IMG/VR virus record: IMGVR_UViG_3300034126_000013
DNA from: a virus
Lineage: Duplodnaviria; Heunggongvirae; Uroviricota; Caudoviricetes
DNA length: 13,585 nt
Reading direction: 5' to 3' (one strand)
The translations under genes were made by a program, and so were the position numbers. Below are positions 1,665-10,817 of this stretch, one piece after another (within the stretch, counting starts at the first letter, position 1; the number at the start of each line of letters is the position of its first letter). The notes under the pieces were generated by a model, which did not search any database, was not told where the DNA came from, and saw nothing but the letters and a program-made list of their open reading frames with translations.

Positions 1665-1700
1665 GTAAAACTACAATTCCTTGTCGGGTAATTGTTTTGA

Positions 1701-1822
1701 TTTGATGCTCGGTTCACGGTGCAGGTTACTTAGACCCGAATTTTTATCACTGACACATCAAATGGGCGCAGATGCAGGTCCTTTTAACCTAATCGTTTAA
1801 GAGTGTCCACCACTCTCTGCAT
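1701..1822 (-). ncRNA. Unknown bipartite structured RNA, copy 2 (module A 1763-1822, module B 1701-1762)
   Basis: A: AUGCAG/CUGCAU closing stem, GAGUG/CACUC hairpin, GGUUAAAAGG motif. B: UGAUGU/GCAUCA, GUCA, UAAAA, UCGG/CCGA. Homologous to 1829-1953. Confidence 0.55.
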
Positions 1823-1828
1823 AATCAA

Positions 1829-1953
1829 TTTGATACTCGGTAGCTTAACATGACCGTACCGATAACTTTTACATGACATATCAGAATTTCAAGGTTACCT
1901 GTGAGGACTTTTACCCCAGTGCATTACGCTAGTTACAACGCAGAACCCTCACA
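1829..1953 (-). ncRNA. Unknown bipartite structured RNA, copy 1 (module A 1900-1953, module B 1829-1885)
   Basis: A: UGUGAGG/CCUCACA stem, internal hairpin, GGGUAAAAGU motif. B: UGAUAU/GUAUCA, GUCA, UAAAA, UCGGUA/UACCGA. Confidence 0.55.
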
Positions 1954-1992
1954 TTGTACTGTTGTCTTACTTGATCGTCACCAAGTCTTGTT

Positions 1993-2080
1993 TGGCAGTA
2001 GATGAGTGATTCGAACACTCGGAGCTTTTACACTCGACGGTTTAGCAAACCGTTACATTAAGCCACTCTGTCAATCTACT
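1993..2080 (-). tRNA. tRNA-Ser(GCU)
   Basis: AGUAGAU/AUCUACU acceptor, anticodon loop UUGCUAA, long variable arm, T loop UUCGAAU, G73, CCA. Confidence 0.95.
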
Positions 2081-3212: not shown

Positions 3213-3223
3213 ATTTACTTATT

Positions 3224-3301
3224 TGGCAGATCGACTCCGATTCGAACAGAGAATGCAAGGATTTGGAATCCCGCCGTTGACCAATTAAACATTACCGACC
3301 T
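3224..3301 (-). tRNA. tRNA-Trp(CCA)
   Basis: A1-U72 acceptor AGGUCGG/UCGAUCU, loop UUCCAAA, T loop UUCGAAU, G73, CCA. Confidence 0.92.
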
Positions 3302-3316
3302 GTATCTACTAATTTG

Positions 3317-3364
3317 TTGTTGTGATTCGGAAGGCCAATCCTCACTAACGTCGAATCACAACAA
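3317..3364 (-). repeat. Perfect 13-bp inverted repeat in the tRNA operon leader (candidate RNase III-type processing stem)
   Basis: ttgttgtgattcg (3317-3329) / cgaatcacaacaa (3352-3364), 22-nt loop. The processing role is inference. Confidence 0.6.
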
Positions 3365-3455
3365 GCAATCCCGCACATCACCTGATTCCTTAGAGGAGAG
3401 GGCTAAGTACCAATTCATCAGTTTGGGAATGCTCTTTTGTCTGGATATACGGTCC

Positions 3456-3484
3456 ATTATATAGAAACACTCCCATCCTGTCAA
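3456..3484 (-). promoter_or_regulatory. Consensus sigma70 promoter driving the tRNA array
   Basis: TTGACA-17 nt-TATAAT, followed by a GC-rich discriminator GGACCG. Confidence 0.92.
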
Positions 3485-4966: not shown

Positions 4967-4995
4967 ATTATACGGATGTGTACGCATTCTGTCAA
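4967..4995 (-). promoter_or_regulatory. Consensus sigma70 promoter (leftward)
   Basis: TTGACA-17 nt-TATAAT. Confidence 0.88.
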
Positions 4996-5040
4996 GAGGC
5001 AAAAACCTATCGATTGGTGAAAGCTGATAGAAAATATCAA

Positions 5041-5068
5041 TTGACAAGGGTGTTGAACCTGATAGAAT
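5041..5068 (+). promoter_or_regulatory. sigma70 promoter (rightward, extended -10) for the rnl-pnk operon
   Basis: TTGACA-16 nt-TAGAAT with TGn; A/T-rich upstream. Confidence 0.8.
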
Positions 5069-5097
5069 GGACCACATCAACCAACAGGAGAGTCATC

Positions 5098-6195
5098 ATG
5101 CAAGTCATTCAATTCATCAAGGAACACGGTCTGGAAGCACTGACTGAGCAGTTCGCAATCAGTGTCAAGAAGGTGGACGACCTACTGGTCCTCAACTACA
5201 ACCAAATCGATAGCCCAAAGACACACCCAATCGTGATCGAATGCCGTAGCCTCATTCTGGAAGCCAAGACACTCAAGGTTGTAAGCCGATCCTTTGATCG
5301 GTTCTTCAATCACGGCGAAGCACTGAATGTAATGCCTGAGATTGACTGGAGCCTTGCTGTAGCTTACGAAAAGGTTGATGGTAGCCTGATTAAGATTTAT
5401 AACCATAAAGGTCACTGGTGCGTTTCTACGAAGGGTACACCTTATGCAGACAGTGATTGCATGGGTTACGGAATCACTTTCTTCGAACTAGTACTCAAAG
5501 CTCTTGGCTGCAAAGATGATGCTGAGTTCCAAACTCTTTGCAAGATGTCTGACCTGTGGCACTCATTCACATATATCTTCGAACTGACATCTGCTGAAAA
5601 CCGTGTTGTAAAGCGTTATGAAGGCTACAAATTGCATTACTTGGCTACTCGTGATAATCCAAGTGGTCGCTATGTGAGTGATACTGAAAAAGATCGTGCA
5701 TTAGCTCTTGGTGCACTTGAAATTGAAGAATATCGCTTCAACACAGTTGATGAGTGTATGCGTACTTCTCGTGAATTGAAAAACCTTGATGAAGGATATG
5801 TTATTTATCAAGGTGGTGTTCCTATTGCAAAAGTGAAATCACCAGCGTATGTTGCCGTGCATCACATTCGCGGTGAAGGCTTGAACCCAAAACGGATCAT
5901 GCAATTGGTTTTGGTGAATGAGCAGGATGAATACCTTCAGTATTTTCCAGATGACCGTGTTGTTATGGAGCCATATATTAAAGCTAAAAAAATCCTTGAC
6001 TTGACTATCTTGGGTACTTACAATGGAATCAAGCACATCGAAGATCAAAAGGACTTCGCTCGCCAAGCAGGTGTAATGCCATTCAAAGCGGCGTTGTTCC
6101 AAGCTCGACAAAAGAACATCTGTGCAATTCAGGCTTTCAACGATCAACGTGAAATTTATAAAATGGAAATTCTCAAGGGGTATGTCGTAAAATGA
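5098..6195 (+). CDS. rnlA: RNA ligase, T4 Rnl1 family
   Basis: Motif I YEKVDGSLI, FELTS, EGYV, KVKSPAY; start reassigned to ATG 5098 after SD AGGAGAG (the ORF-track start at 4978 overlaps the promoters). Confidence 0.9.
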   Translation: MQVIQFIKEHGLEALTEQFAISVKKVDDLLVLNYNQIDSPKTHPIVIECRSLILEAKTLKVVSRSFDRFFNHGEALNVMPEIDWSLAVAYEKVDGSLIKIYNHKGHWCVSTKGTPYADSDCMGYGITFFELVLKALGCKDDAEFQTLCKMSDLWHSFTYIFELTSAENRVVKRYEGYKLHYLATRDNPSGRYVSDTEKDRALALGALEIEEYRFNTVDECMRTSRELKNLDEGYVIYQGGVPIAKVKSPAYVAVHHIRGEGLNPKRIMQLVLVNEQDEYLQYFPDDRVVMEPYIKAKKILDLTILGTYNGIKHIEDQKDFARQAGVMPFKAALFQARQKNICAIQAFNDQREIYKMEILKGYVVK

Positions 6196-6314
6196 AAGGT
6201 TTCGCCAAGGTTGAAAAAGCTGATTTGCTAGCTACAACAGATGGTTATGTTCTGGTCGATGACAAAATGGCCAGCGTAATTGTGAAATACAAAATATATT
6301 TGGAGAAAGTGTAA
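6192..6314 (+). CDS. Hypothetical protein (40 aa)
   Basis: MKGFAKVEKADLLATTDGYVLVDDKMASVIVKYKIYLEKV; ATGA and TAATG overlaps on both sides. Confidence 0.7.
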   Translation: MKGFAKVEKADLLATTDGYVLVDDKMASVIVKYKIYLEKV

Positions 6315-7195
6315 TGCGTGCAATTATTACAGTAGGTGTACCAGCTTCAGGCAAAACAACCTTTGCAAACGAAATGGTTAGCAAGTTTGGATTCCGTGAT
6401 ATCAATCGGGACTTCATCCGATTCAATCTGGTAAAGCCCGGTTCCACTTGGGCAACCTACAAGTTCAACAAGGCAAATGAACGTGCTGTTGACGATATCC
6501 ACGGCAAAATGATTATGGAGTCTTGGGAAAACGAAGAAGACATCATCATTTCGGATACCAACCTTAACACCAAACGTCGTCGTGTATTGATTGAACGCCT
6601 ACAAGACTTGGGTTATGATGTTGAAGTTAAGCCGTTCGAAATCAGTCGTAAAGAAGCACTGAAGCGTGATAACCTTCGTGCGAATGGTGTTGGTCATGAT
6701 ATCATCTATCGAATGATGCAGAAATGGAACGAGTTCGTCGGTCGGCTTACGTACACACCAGATACATCGTTGCAGAAAGCAGTCATCTTCGACGTTGACG
6801 GCACAATTGCTGAGATGAATGGTCGTGGTCCTTTTGAATGGCATCGTGTTGGTGAGGATAAACCTCGTGAAATGATTATCAAAATGCTTCAGGGTTATGC
6901 AAACCTTGGATTCCATATCATTATCTGCTCAGGTCGATCTGATGAATGTTTCAAAGAAACAGCAGAATGGCTTGACAAATATGTAGGATTGAATTACTGG
7001 GACAAGCTTTACATGCGTAAGGCTGGTGACTATCGGAAAGATACCGAAATTAAAGAGGAAATCTTCTGGACACACCTCGCAGATAAGTATAACATCGTGG
7101 CTTGTGTTGATGACCGACCAATGATGATTCGGCTTTGGCATGAACTGAAAATCGAAAACGTGATCGCAGTAGCCGATCCATACATTGAATTTTAA
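6314..7195 (+). CDS. pseT: Polynucleotide 5'-kinase / 3'-phosphatase (T4 PseT-like)
   Basis: N-terminal P-loop GVPASGKTT with RD motif; C-terminal HAD motifs FDVDGT, SGR, K and DDR. Confidence 0.95.
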   Translation: MRAIITVGVPASGKTTFANEMVSKFGFRDINRDFIRFNLVKPGSTWATYKFNKANERAVDDIHGKMIMESWENEEDIIISDTNLNTKRRRVLIERLQDLGYDVEVKPFEISRKEALKRDNLRANGVGHDIIYRMMQKWNEFVGRLTYTPDTSLQKAVIFDVDGTIAEMNGRGPFEWHRVGEDKPREMIIKMLQGYANLGFHIIICSGRSDECFKETAEWLDKYVGLNYWDKLYMRKAGDYRKDTEIKEEIFWTHLADKYNIVACVDDRPMMIRLWHELKIENVIAVADPYIEF

Positions 7196-7208: not shown

Positions 7209-7424
7209 ATGAGCAAATCAAGTCTGAAATTTAAAGCAGGTGATACAGTTTGCATTATTGACGACACAACATTTCATGGCTTCGAAATCGGTAGCTTCAT
7301 AACTATCGAAAGTATTAAAGACTGGGATAATGGTTTCTTTAGTTATGAAGCTATTGATAAAGATGGTGACTGTATGCTATTTGACGATGACGACTGCTCA
7401 GCAATCCAAGGAGTACTTCAATGA
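7209..7424 (+). CDS. Hypothetical protein (71 aa)
   Basis: SD TAAGGAG, ATG 7209, ATGA overlap downstream. Confidence 0.75.
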   Translation: MSKSSLKFKAGDTVCIIDDTTFHGFEIGSFITIESIKDWDNGFFSYEAIDKDGDCMLFDDDDCSAIQGVLQ

Positions 7425-8251
7425 TTAAGTATAAAACAGGTAATATCCAAACGACAGTTCGTCAGTGGACCTTTCCAGACGGTTGTGTAGGCATCGACCT
7501 GCAACTTGGAAGTCAGCAAGTTGATTTCCTTTGCGCTGAAGTGCATGTGACTTGCATCTTTGGTAGCGAAGGGTTTACAATCAATGACGACATCATTGCA
7601 CTGGCATTCGTTCGTGATGCATTGCGGACTCAATATCCGATTGCAAATATCCATCTGAGCCTACCATACATTCCATATGCTCGCCAAGATCGAGCCTGTA
7701 ACCCCGGTGAGGCTGCTAGCTTGAAAGTAATCGGTAACATGATCAACGGTATGGGTTTCGCTACTGTGCGTTGTGTAGACGCTCACAGCATGGTTGCAGG
7801 GGCATGTATTGACCGACTTTATGTCGAGGATCAGTATTCTGTATTCAGTGGTGTGCGTCAGAGCTTCCGTGAAACGTATATCGTTGCTCCCGATCAAGGT
7901 GCAAGCAAGAAGTGTGAAGACTTTGCAAAGCGTGTTGGTGCGGCTGGTGTTATCACTTGCGCAAAGAACCGTGACCTGAAGACCGGTAAAATCATTGGCT
8001 TCCGTGTAATTGATGACGTTCCACCAAATGCAGACCTTCTGGTTCTGGATGATTTGTGTGACGCTGGTGGTACTTTTATTGCTGTAGCTACTGAGCTACG
8101 CAAGCATGAACCTGCACGTCTGGACTTGGCTATCACACATGGTCTGTTCACGAAAGGTGTTGGTATTGTCAAGGATCATTTCGACAAAGTTTTCACAACA
8201 AATAGCTACAACAGCAATAAAAATGGTGCGATTGTTATTGACTTGGGTTAA
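7421..8251 (+). CDS. prs: Ribose-phosphate pyrophosphokinase-like protein (NARP1 Adps-type ADPR-PP synthetase by context)
   Basis: YIPYARQDR, VDAHS, VAPDQGA and PRTase motif VLDDLCDAGGTF. Confidence 0.92.
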   Translation: MIKYKTGNIQTTVRQWTFPDGCVGIDLQLGSQQVDFLCAEVHVTCIFGSEGFTINDDIIALAFVRDALRTQYPIANIHLSLPYIPYARQDRACNPGEAASLKVIGNMINGMGFATVRCVDAHSMVAGACIDRLYVEDQYSVFSGVRQSFRETYIVAPDQGASKKCEDFAKRVGAAGVITCAKNRDLKTGKIIGFRVIDDVPPNADLLVLDDLCDAGGTFIAVATELRKHEPARLDLAITHGLFTKGVGIVKDHFDKVFTTNSYNSNKNGAIVIDLG

Positions 8252-8590: not shown

Positions 8591-9007
8591 ATGAGCATTA
8601 CATTGCGTTTAGATACAACTGGTTTGCGTAAAATGATCGAAGACAACCCTGAGTTCAAGATCGAGATTCAAAAAGGTGTGCTTGACAACATTAACTCAGA
8701 TAACATTGAACAAGCAGTTCGTACAAAGATTGAAATTGTACTTCGAAGCATGTGTAAGGAAGAGGGTAACTACTATAACAAAAAGTATACAATTACGGAT
8801 GCTAAACTTATCGAAGCAATGAGGCTTATTGTAGAACAACAGGTTGTTGAACTTTCTGAAACTGCAATCAAAAATAATATTGCTGATATTATTAGCGGCA
8901 TTGCATTAGAACTACGTCGTGATATGAAAGCTAATCTAAAGGCAAGCATTCTTGAAGTAATGACGCCTGAGCTTGCTAAAGAAATCCTCATTGCAAAACT
9001 TGTATAA
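8591..9007 (+). CDS. Hypothetical helical protein (138 aa)
   Basis: SD AGGAGA; fills the gap before the NAMPT-like gene. Confidence 0.8.
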   Translation: MSITLRLDTTGLRKMIEDNPEFKIEIQKGVLDNINSDNIEQAVRTKIEIVLRSMCKEEGNYYNKKYTITDAKLIEAMRLIVEQQVVELSETAIKNNIADIISGIALELRRDMKANLKASILEVMTPELAKEILIAKLV

Positions 9008-9017
9008 GGAGAAACAC

Positions 9018-10817
9018 ATGAAACTTTTCGCAGCCTTTCTGTCTGATGGTTACAAACTGGGTCACCCTGACATGTACGCAGATGGTACTGAAGTCGTATC
9101 TTCTAACCTTACGCCACGTGGTGACAAGATTTATCGCAGGTCGTGCACTCGTTACTATGACGGTAAGCTCACTGTAATCGGTCACGCTGGTGCAATCCAA
9201 GAAATCGTTGAGATGTGGGACGACTTCTTCAAGATGGATCGAGGTATTGCAATCGCTCGATTCAAACTGCTGTGCGACCATTACTTTGGTTACGATGTAA
9301 TCACAACTGACCGTCTTGCATTGCTTCACAAGTTGGGTTATCTTCCTCTGGAGATTCGTACTCTCGACGAAGGTAGTAAAGTCAACATGGGCGTTCCAGT
9401 TCTGACAATCCGTAACACCATTTATCATGCGTTTTGGTTGGTGAACTTCATTGAAACCGTAATCAGCAACTTGACTTGGAAACCGTCTACCGCTGCAACC
9501 ATCGCTCAGGAATATCGTGCGATGCTGACTGACTTTGCAATCCGTACTGGTACTCCGCTTGATGTTGTAAATATTCAGGCTCACAACTTTGCTGATCGTG
9601 GTATGTCCGGTTTCGAAGACGCAGCACGTACTGGTTTCGGTCACGCTGCAAGCTTCCTCGGTTCTGATTCGTTGGGTACGGTTATGTACGCTCAACAATA
9701 CTATCGTGCCGGTAACTTTGTTTCCTGCTCGGTTCCGGCAACGGAACACGCTGTATCTACTAGCAACATTCTGCGAATTGAGAATGAGATTTATGATGGT
9801 ACTTACAAATTTAAGAATGAAGAACATACTCAAATTTTTGTAAACATGAATGTAGTTGGTGGTGATCTGCGACTTATCGCTGAAATCATGTTCATGTACG
9901 AACTGATGCTGAAGTTTCCAGTTGGTATCCTATCGTATGTAGCTGATAGCTTTGACTTCTACGGTCTGATTTCTCGTGGTTTGCCATACCTGAAAGATGT
10001 AATCCTGCGACGTGAATCGAACGGTGTAACTCCCGGTCGTCTGGTTATTCGTCCTGATTCGGGTGATCCATTGACAGTTCTGTGTGGTGTCAAGGTTCAT
10101 GATATGCCTCATAGCACTCAGTCTTTTATTGATGAATGTGATGAAGCATACGATAGTCTTTCTGACATTGCCGACGGATACAACAACGGTAAGGAGGAAG
10201 AAACTTTCTACATTCGAACTACAGATGGTGATGTTATTGAAGTTCACGCTTCGTATGAATATGAGCGTTACTATAATACTTGGTCCTATACTGGCTGTTC
10301 TGCACGTGTTGTTGAGTTGACCGTTGAACAACGTGGTGCAATCGATGTACTCGGTGAAATCTTTGGCTTTGACCTGACTCCAACTGGTCACAAGCTGTTG
10401 AATGACCACATTGGTCTGATTTACGGTGACTCGATTACCACAACTCGCTGCCTGAGTATTCTGGAACGCATGGATGAGATGGGTTTTGCATCCGGTTGTG
10501 CAATGTTCGGTATTGGTAGCTACACTTATCAGTGTGTGACTCGTGATACCTTTGGTTTCGCAGTCAAGGCAACATACACTCGTGTTAACGGTAAGTGCAT
10601 TCCGATCTTCAAAGACCCGAAGACCGATAGCTCCAAGAAGTCTGCAAAAGGTCTGTTGTATGTAGGTATTGGTGAGAACAATGAACCTGAACTGCTGGAT
10701 AATGTGTCAATGGAAATTCATACGTCTGAAGAGAACCTGTTGAAAGTTCGCTTCCTCGATGGTCAGTTCTACAACATGCCAACCCTTGATGGAATTCGTG
10801 CAAAACTGATGGTTTAA
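9018..10817 (+). CDS. nadV: Nicotinamide phosphoribosyltransferase-like protein (NARP1 Namat-type by context)
   Basis: DGYKLGH, HNFADRG, SVPATEH, SYVADSFD, VIRPDSGDP, LIYGDSI, KDPKTD..KKSAKG; start at ATG 9018 after SD AGGAGA. Confidence 0.94.
   Translation: MKLFAAFLSDGYKLGHPDMYADGTEVVSSNLTPRGDKIYRRSCTRYYDGKLTVIGHAGAIQEIVEMWDDFFKMDRGIAIARFKLLCDHYFGYDVITTDRLALLHKLGYLPLEIRTLDEGSKVNMGVPVLTIRNTIYHAFWLVNFIETVISNLTWKPSTAATIAQEYRAMLTDFAIRTGTPLDVVNIQAHNFADRGMSGFEDAARTGFGHAASFLGSDSLGTVMYAQQYYRAGNFVSCSVPATEHAVSTSNILRIENEIYDGTYKFKNEEHTQIFVNMNVVGGDLRLIAEIMFMYELMLKFPVGILSYVADSFDFYGLISRGLPYLKDVILRRESNGVTPGRLVIRPDSGDPLTVLCGVKVHDMPHSTQSFIDECDEAYDSLSDIADGYNNGKEEETFYIRTTDGDVIEVHASYEYERYYNTWSYTGCSARVVELTVEQRGAIDVLGEIFGFDLTPTGHKLLNDHIGLIYGDSITTTRCLSILERMDEMGFASGCAMFGIGSYTYQCVTRDTFGFAVKATYTRVNGKCIPIFKDPKTDSSKKSAKGLLYVGIGENNEPELLDNVSMEIHTSEENLLKVRFLDGQFYNMPTLDGIRAKLMV

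Follow-up and report, generated by a model that had tools for sequence, protein, structure and literature searches.

Small non-tRNA RNAs inside phage tRNA clusters have been known for decades. Bands C and D of T4 were found in the 1970s, and the small RNAs of phage tRNA clusters have been without known function since (PMC4933390). The closest described systems are T4 RnaC and RnaD (the species 1 and 2 RNAs) and sRNA2 of PAK_P3, which are small non-tRNA RNAs of unknown function within a tRNA cluster (PMC9697503, PMC4933390). In PAK_P3, a spacer RNA between tRNAs is one of the late RNAs with the highest expression (PMC4933390). Type III antitoxins offer a second point of comparison, as they are pseudoknots with an A-rich loop (PMC4627078, PMC12283969). 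Orphan stable RNAs in phage tRNA clusters are an already known kind. What is new here are three families of them, which neither Rfam 15 nor the papers that were searched contain.

The window (the whole stretch of 13,585 nt that was analysed) is part of a 97-kb virus record. Its source is a phiPMW-like Pseudomonas myophage, and its terminase fragment is 88% identical to the terminase of Pseudomonas phage phiPMW. The tRNA array is on the minus strand, upstream of the terminase large subunit gene, and extends between a sigma-70 promoter and a terminator-like hairpin. The landmarks of this setting are as follows.

3484-3456, minus strand: perfect sigma-70-type promoter (12/12 match) upstream of the tRNA array
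1993-2080, minus strand: tRNA-Ser(GCU), in myophages the usual upstream neighbour of module A1
1664-1634, minus strand: intrinsic terminator-like hairpin at the end of the tRNA transcript, an inverted repeat with A and T runs, read from the sequence
4978-7195, plus strand: RNA ligase of the T4 Rnl1 type and Pnk kinase/phosphatase, with transcription directed away from the array (Pfam PF09511, PF25109)

Prs-like and nicotinamide/nicotinate phosphoribosyltransferase genes at 7421-8251 and 8973-10817 (Pfam PF13793, PF04095) recall phage NAD-rebuilding pathways. More structured non-tRNA segments lie in the array at 2171-2283, 2452-2810 and 3213-3450, several of them kept in the relatives L007, L010 and L012. 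A tRNA-Trp-like gene near 3225-3300 was not called by ARAGORN.

The original prediction described the segment between tRNA-Ser(GCU) and the terminator as two tandem copies of one bipartite A-B RNA, here called A1, B1, A2 and B2. No ORF of at least 50 amino acids overlaps this region, and neither ARAGORN nor Rfam calls a tRNA among the modules. The proposed Rfam scan was run; no Rfam 15 covariance model matched 1660-1995 even at E ≤ 10, which leaves the families uncatalogued, and the homologues of the modules gave no match either. A literature search found no papers on the conserved motifs of the modules, and nothing relevant on phage tRNA-array mimics or phage RNAs complementary to 23S rRNA. 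The whole region folds no better than shuffled sequences (z = -0.23), so homologues were collected, both from named phages and from contigs of viral and metagenome origin (the latter carry L numbers below). The evidence for structure comes from the comparison of these homologues, not from folding the region alone. The minus (tRNA) strand is the relevant one. The comparison shows four separately folding small RNAs from three uncatalogued families in place of a tandem repeat. The prediction was right in that real, selected, uncatalogued structured noncoding RNAs lie at the 3' end of the tRNA transcript. Its A-B duplication and its structures for the A modules did not hold.

Module A1 is the best represented of the families.

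about 1889-1985, minus strand: module A1 (~97 nt), with 28 homologues (19 canonical and 9 divergent)
1985-1970, minus strand: P1 hairpin of A1
1969-1961, minus strand: A-rich linker
1960-1953 with 1939-1931, minus strand: P2 stem, capped by a 13-nt loop at 1952-1940
about 1930-1919, minus strand: P3, variable
1918-1902, minus strand: T-loop hairpin
1901-1892, minus strand: 3' tail, which pairs with the P2 loop to form a pseudoknot of 3+5 bp around a 2-nt bulge

The 5' hairpin and the A-rich linker, overlooked originally, are present in all 19 canonical copies. P2 pairs in 88 of 95 cells of the canonical copies, compared to 52 ± 4 with the arms shuffled and 28-46 with the arms slid, and all six of its pairs show double-sided change. 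The closing stem first proposed for this module would disrupt P2. Only 3 of 19 homologues can form it completely, 13 of 18 break its A-U pair, and it does not covary. Its bases form instead a 4-bp hairpin, paired in every copy, with a 7-nt T-loop-type loop (UAAAAGU, UAAGAGU or UACGAGU). The 13-nt loop and the 3' tail pair in 98.6% of cells in the canonical copies, a figure that is little proof alone, since this helix barely varies among them, partly through the search patterns used. In the divergent copies of phiPsa300, L031, Amme-3 and Y1-MI, loop and tail are rewritten and the pairing is kept. Over five unrelated sequence types, the cognate loop-tail duplexes come to -47.8 kcal/mol in all (mean -28.3) and rank first among 120 permutations. 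Four of five further divergent copies fit by inspection, and the fifth (L278) pairs only partly. This complete rewriting with pairing preserved indicates that the shape of the helix matters, not its sequence.

In myophages, A1 usually follows tRNA-Ser(GCU) and starts a few bases past the tRNA CCA end. Its neighbours vary (Ser, Pro, His or Thr tRNA, or B), and small-RNA clusters on unrelated siphophage-like contigs that have no tRNA array (L037, L042, L052, L074 and L110) contain it too. Pattern scans of genome and metagenome contigs gave mostly chance matches, and every real match was phage-like. The A1 and B models had no match in the PAK_P1, PAK_P3, T4, AM24, M1, VH-8 and ET-ABTNL-9 regions or in rRNA operons. 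The T-loop hairpin of A1, stacked on the 8-bp pseudoknot helix, would make a rod about the size of the top half of a tRNA. A CCA end was found in one A1 copy (L031) and is absent from most, and the T-loops do not have the UUCR sequence of tRNA; any tRNA mimicry by A1 would therefore be loose. At 4906-4970 of L045, a 20-nt exact match to the A1 T-loop hairpin and tail lies within another structured RNA, which is larger and may be a group II intron.

Modules B1 and B2 belong to one family.

1829-1885, minus strand: module B1, a closed pseudoknot with 8 family members
1875-1872, minus strand: 5' strand of helix b, in a bulge with an A-rich loop inside the closing stem P1
1862-1857 with 1842-1837, minus strand: stem P2 of B1
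1852-1849, minus strand: 3' strand of helix b, in the terminal loop
1701-1762, minus strand: module B2, whose nearest relative is the phiPsa300 copy (89%)

Eight distinct sequences define family B as a closed pseudoknot of about 60 nt. Its members have in common a U-G pair that never varies, a closing stem in which changes are compensated, an A-rich stretch, and a 5' bulge starting with GUC. The A-U to G-C compensatory swap that had been pointed out in the closing stem of B1 and B2 is present. The second stem opens with UCG/CGA and covaries beyond it, and the unpaired bases UGUC, AA and CGAG are invariant. Helix b, which joins four bulge bases to the terminal loop, had been missed, and its sequence differs in almost every copy. 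It forms 26 of 28 pairs, compared to 15.6 ± 2.4 with the loops exchanged among copies (1 of 5040 permutations) and 14.9 with shuffled loops (0 of 20000); the helix was first spotted by eye, and the control was given the same free choice of position. The source genome contains no family B copies beyond the two in the window. A hammerhead reading of B was rejected, as the bases of the supposed core pair within a covarying stem and only 3 of 8 copies keep GAAA. A likeness of the first arm to the E. coli 23S L1 stalk was also rejected (9 nt, chance level). Other small modules have a B-like helix order by eye (bulge with terminal loop), with different sequence and no B-model match; those of L037 and L042 lie just 3' of A1, and that of L038 lies between A1 and module C. 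Another, at 2438-2496 of L006 and before module C in L252, has a B-like UUUGAA/UUCAAA closing stem and a different interior.

Module A2 is a tRNA-like RNA of a third family.

1763-1821, minus strand: module A2, without anticodon arm, with a 92% identical copy in phiPMW
1791-1775, minus strand: T-like arm, a 5-bp stem with a 7-nt loop
1765-1763, minus strand: CCA, after the discriminator

It further has a 6-bp acceptor-like stem, a D-like hairpin with a GUGGA loop, and a 9-nt linker that replaces the anticodon arm. Acceptor-like stem, T-like arm and 3' CCA are thus all found, as in tRNA-like mimics. A2 was rejected as an ordinary tRNA, as it has neither an anticodon arm nor a canonical T-loop. 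Folded with the true 3' end, the tRNA-like pairs have probabilities of 0.91-1.0, versus 0.01 for the closing stem first proposed. The phiPMW copy follows tRNA-Pro. Between the two copies, one pair of the D-like stem is swapped (G-C to C-G), one acceptor pair changes from U-G to U-A, and two bases of the T-loop differ, all of which is compatible with the tRNA-like fold. The two known sequences are too few for statistics. Two pattern scans for further copies returned only phiPMW and chance matches, so no A2 model was built.

The features that had suggested a duplication are partly real. As reported, the strings common to the B modules lie 128 nt apart, with starts at 1829 and 1701, and the GG(G/U)UAAAAG motifs lie 127 nt apart, at 1908 and 1781. 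B1 and B2 are homologous, with a local score of 50 (shuffle mean 28.8) that none of 2000 shuffles reached. A1 and A2 show no detectable homology (score 32 versus 25.5 ± 3.7, P = 0.064), and a search with the A1 covariance model did not find A2. B2 is 89% identical to the phiPsa300 copy and only 63% to B1, no higher than its identity to any other family member. A1 reaches about 32 nt past its earlier boundary, to 1985, and the 128-nt period is therefore a coincidence of module sizes. The modules also occur alone or in other orders in relatives, which speaks against a bipartite A-B RNA. PhiPsa374, VCM, Bobbio and many contigs have A1 and no B, phiPMW has A2 and no B, and L010, L012 and L032 have B and no A1. 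In L031, B precedes A1, and in L035 a tRNA lies between A1 and B. L007, with a terminase 96% identical, has none of the four modules and runs from tRNA-Ser straight into module C; as such relatives exist, none of the modules is essential. Bare 4-10-nt spacers join the same tRNAs in relatives. Because the modules are independent, A1 and A2 are unrelated, and B2 is closest to phiPsa300, the A-B-A-B order and the 128-nt period are an accident of cassette stacking, not of duplication.

The 3' end of the tRNA operon is thus a row of exchangeable small-RNA cassettes, A1, B1, A2, B2 and C. The cassettes fold separately, are selected for their fold (the evidence being covariation for A1 and B, and two sequences only for A2), and have been gained, lost and reordered independently among Pseudomonas phages.

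The last cassette is a hairpin just outside the region that had been flagged.

1673-1695, minus strand: module C, a small hairpin whose strand 1691-1675 is an exact 17-nt complement of 23S rRNA 1937-1953 (helix 70/71)

The complement holds for both E. coli and Pseudomonas 23S rRNA, and 0.007 such matches are expected in the whole window. The 10-nt core of module C is in a small hairpin in phiPMW, SYP, PAK_P1, Amme-3, Y1-MI and T4, with compensating flanks, and in T4 it lies just 3' of rnaC. Its target includes UUCCU of 23S helix/loop 70, which MazF-mt3 and MazF-mt6 cleave and which subunit joining requires (PMC5408214). Module C may block or shield the 50S subunit, or serve as a repair splint. 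Two related clusters contain look-alikes of host RNAs. One is a stand-alone abiF RNA (RF03085, 43.4 bits against a gathering threshold of 37) at 1295-1332 of L052, minus strand, directly 3' of an A1 copy. No AbiF-sized ORF lies downstream of it on the 2.4-kb contig, and abiF-motif RNA neutralises the AbiF toxin in trans (10.1101/2025.04.15.648962); the L052 RNA is possibly an antitoxin mimic. The other, at 11669-11722 of L031 (minus strand, in the tRNA array), copies part of 23S helices 43-44, with 18 nt identical to E. coli 1062-1079. In the Pseudomonas siphophage small-RNA clusters of L042, L052, L074 and L173 (phage MR14), there is a common small hairpin with an ACAU or ACGU loop; L052, L074 and L173 also have a long stem that closes off a variable insert. 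A two-hairpin module with an A-rich linker, in the slot preceding module C, was seen after A1 in L008 and before module C in L190.

We favor the reading, with a probability of roughly 45%, that the modules are cut out of the tRNA transcript as stable decoy RNAs, comparable to T4 RnaC and RnaD. The analogy to the T4 species 1 and 2 RNAs, or to decoys, was already raised in the original prediction, and we have kept it as the best reading. Like RNAs of the RnaC/RnaD kind, the modules are noncoding, on the same strand and within the tRNA operon. Judging from the biology of tRNA operons, the cassettes would be transcribed from the promoter at 3484 and excised at short A/U-rich linkers by the host nucleases of tRNA maturation. 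They would then build up as stable late RNAs of 60-100 nt, protected by closing stems and pseudoknots, as the cases of T4 RnaC/RnaD and PAK_P3 sRNA2 suggest. In the least certain step, they would act in trans as shape decoys for host RNA-recognising proteins that threaten or control translation. A2, with its acceptor stem, T arm and CCA, and A1 would occupy tRNA-binding proteins, for example toxins that attack tRNAs, or sensors. The target of B, whose compact pseudoknot combines an A-rich loop with an invariant core, would be a toxin or regulator that binds RNA. Alongside the tRNAs, Rnl1 and Pnk, the cassettes would keep translation going against host defences. In 151 sampled Pseudomonas genomes, searched with strict filters and no positive control, the A1 and B models had no match. 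This search thus gave no host antitoxin or other RNA that they might imitate, which counts against a decoy role. The abiF and rRNA-copy neighbours lie in other phages, and they therefore provide guilt by association only. A bolder proposal is that A1 and B are two new folds, both trans-acting anti-defence decoys that each imitate the RNA ligand of an undescribed Pseudomonas defence protein, much as the abiF copy next to an A1 homologue would imitate a known antitoxin, or that one of them is a new class of ribozyme or nucleotide sponge; this we consider rather unlikely.

Other explanations have to be weighed against the decoy reading. The modules might act in cis, A2 as tRNA-like punctuation that attracts RNase P, and the A1 and B pseudoknots as blocks to exonucleases that protect the tRNA transcript. 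All of them are in tRNA operon spacers, A2 has its acceptor-like stem and CCA, and A1 usually starts next to a tRNA end, as such elements might. However, A1 is also found in clusters without an adjacent tRNA and with varying neighbours, relatives manage the same tRNAs with bare spacers, and the invariant unpaired cores exceed what a simple roadblock needs. A role in cis is unlikely in our view. A new class of self-cleaving ribozyme in A1 and/or B, trimming the tRNA transcript as theta ribozymes do, would agree with the compact pseudoknots, the small conserved core and the variable peripheral stems, and the A1 T-loop hairpin and A-rich linker recall twister-sister L4 and the hatchet linker. We nevertheless think this very unlikely. 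As in the original prediction, no known ribozyme consensus fits: no Rfam ribozyme matched at E ≤ 10, and on inspection none of the hammerhead, twister, twister-sister, pistol, hatchet and HDV/theta catalytic motifs is present. In addition, the A1 pseudoknot sequence turns over completely, and there is no fixed position relative to a tRNA end.

The invariant unpaired bases (UGUC, AA and CGAG in B; linker and T-loop in A1) and the riboswitch-like size of the pseudoknots, with no downstream gene to regulate, could instead point to aptamers that soak up a nucleotide signal, such as an immune second messenger, as RNA counterparts of phage sponge proteins. We give this little probability: no Rfam riboswitch matched, what is conserved in the core of A1 is largely a generic T-loop module, and we know of no precedent. 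Module C, with its complement to 23S rRNA, appears to be antisense, and it might be asked whether the other modules are also antisense to host RNAs. Their rRNA matches are at most 11 nt in A1, A2, B1 and B2 and are not common to family members, and the longest conserved stretches are paired internally, which makes this highly improbable. Equally hard to credit is the model proposed at the outset, one A-B RNA in tandem that mimics a type III antitoxin and is cut at UAAAA. It can point to two B copies 128 nt apart and to B as a pseudoknot with an A-rich loop, but its duplicated architecture is already refuted by the unrelated A1 and A2, the separable A and B, and the low identity of B1 and B2. 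Moreover, the pseudoknot of B is enclosed by a closing stem and has no free tails. UAAAA itself is not conserved: most A1 homologues have UAAGA and some UACGA, A2 of phiPMW has GAAAA, and B keeps only the AA. In A1 and A2 it falls in the T-loop and varies, and in B it is part of the A-rich loop; A-rich cleavage sites common to the modules are thus unsupported.

With the decoy reading, the modules would be baits for undiscovered host RNA-binding defence proteins. If A1 and B are indeed new decoy folds, phage tRNA clusters would be interchangeable libraries of RNA decoys, with which unknown RNA-controlled defence systems could be fished out. Two of the families (A1 and B) are backed by covariation and offer exact pairings to break and restore, and cultured phages carry them (phiPsa374, phiPsa300, VCM, Amme-3 and Y1-MI, with A2 in phiPMW). 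The question of function is therefore directly testable.

Several known RNAs resemble the modules in part. Phage mimicry of a type III antitoxin has a precedent in the pseudo-ToxI of phiTE. ToxI, AntiQ, CptI, TenpI and the phiTE mimic have in common with B a small pseudoknot and an A-rich loop. Unlike them, B has no near-identical tandem repeats, conserved cut site or free tails, and it occurs as single copies in relatives; no cognate toxin gene or host copy was found for it in the same 151 genomes, searched with strict filters and no positive control. The abiF RNA, antitoxin of AbiF, adjoins an A1 homologue in one siphophage, and none of the four modules of the window matches it. Theta ribozymes lie just 3' of phage tRNAs, hatchet has a hairpin followed by ACAAAC, and twister-sister has a 7-nt T-loop hairpin, all of which recall the modules. 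Helix order and catalytic residues of theta (HDV-like), hatchet and twister-sister do not fit, however, in line with the lack of an Rfam match. The helix order of B is that of the 16S helix-18 pseudoknot, and the sequence differs.

A1 resembles the 3' tRNA-like structure (TLS) of TYMV in its idea, a T arm on a pseudoknotted acceptor-like helix, and the tRNA-like domain of tmRNA has an acceptor, a T arm and CCA with no anticodon arm, as does A2. Compared to these two and to YrlA (RF02553), the modules have no Rfam match, their T-loops are without UUCR, and a CCA end is rare in A1. A2 keeps the normal order, without permutation, and does not have the Ro60-binding stem. The A1 and B models show no similarity to T4 RnaC/RnaD or PAK_P3 sRNA2; for A2 the comparison with RnaC/RnaD was by eye. 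RnaC and sRNA2 do have a T-arm-like hairpin near the 3' end, as do modules here, whereas A1 and B are pseudoknots with a non-tRNA T-loop or an A-rich loop.
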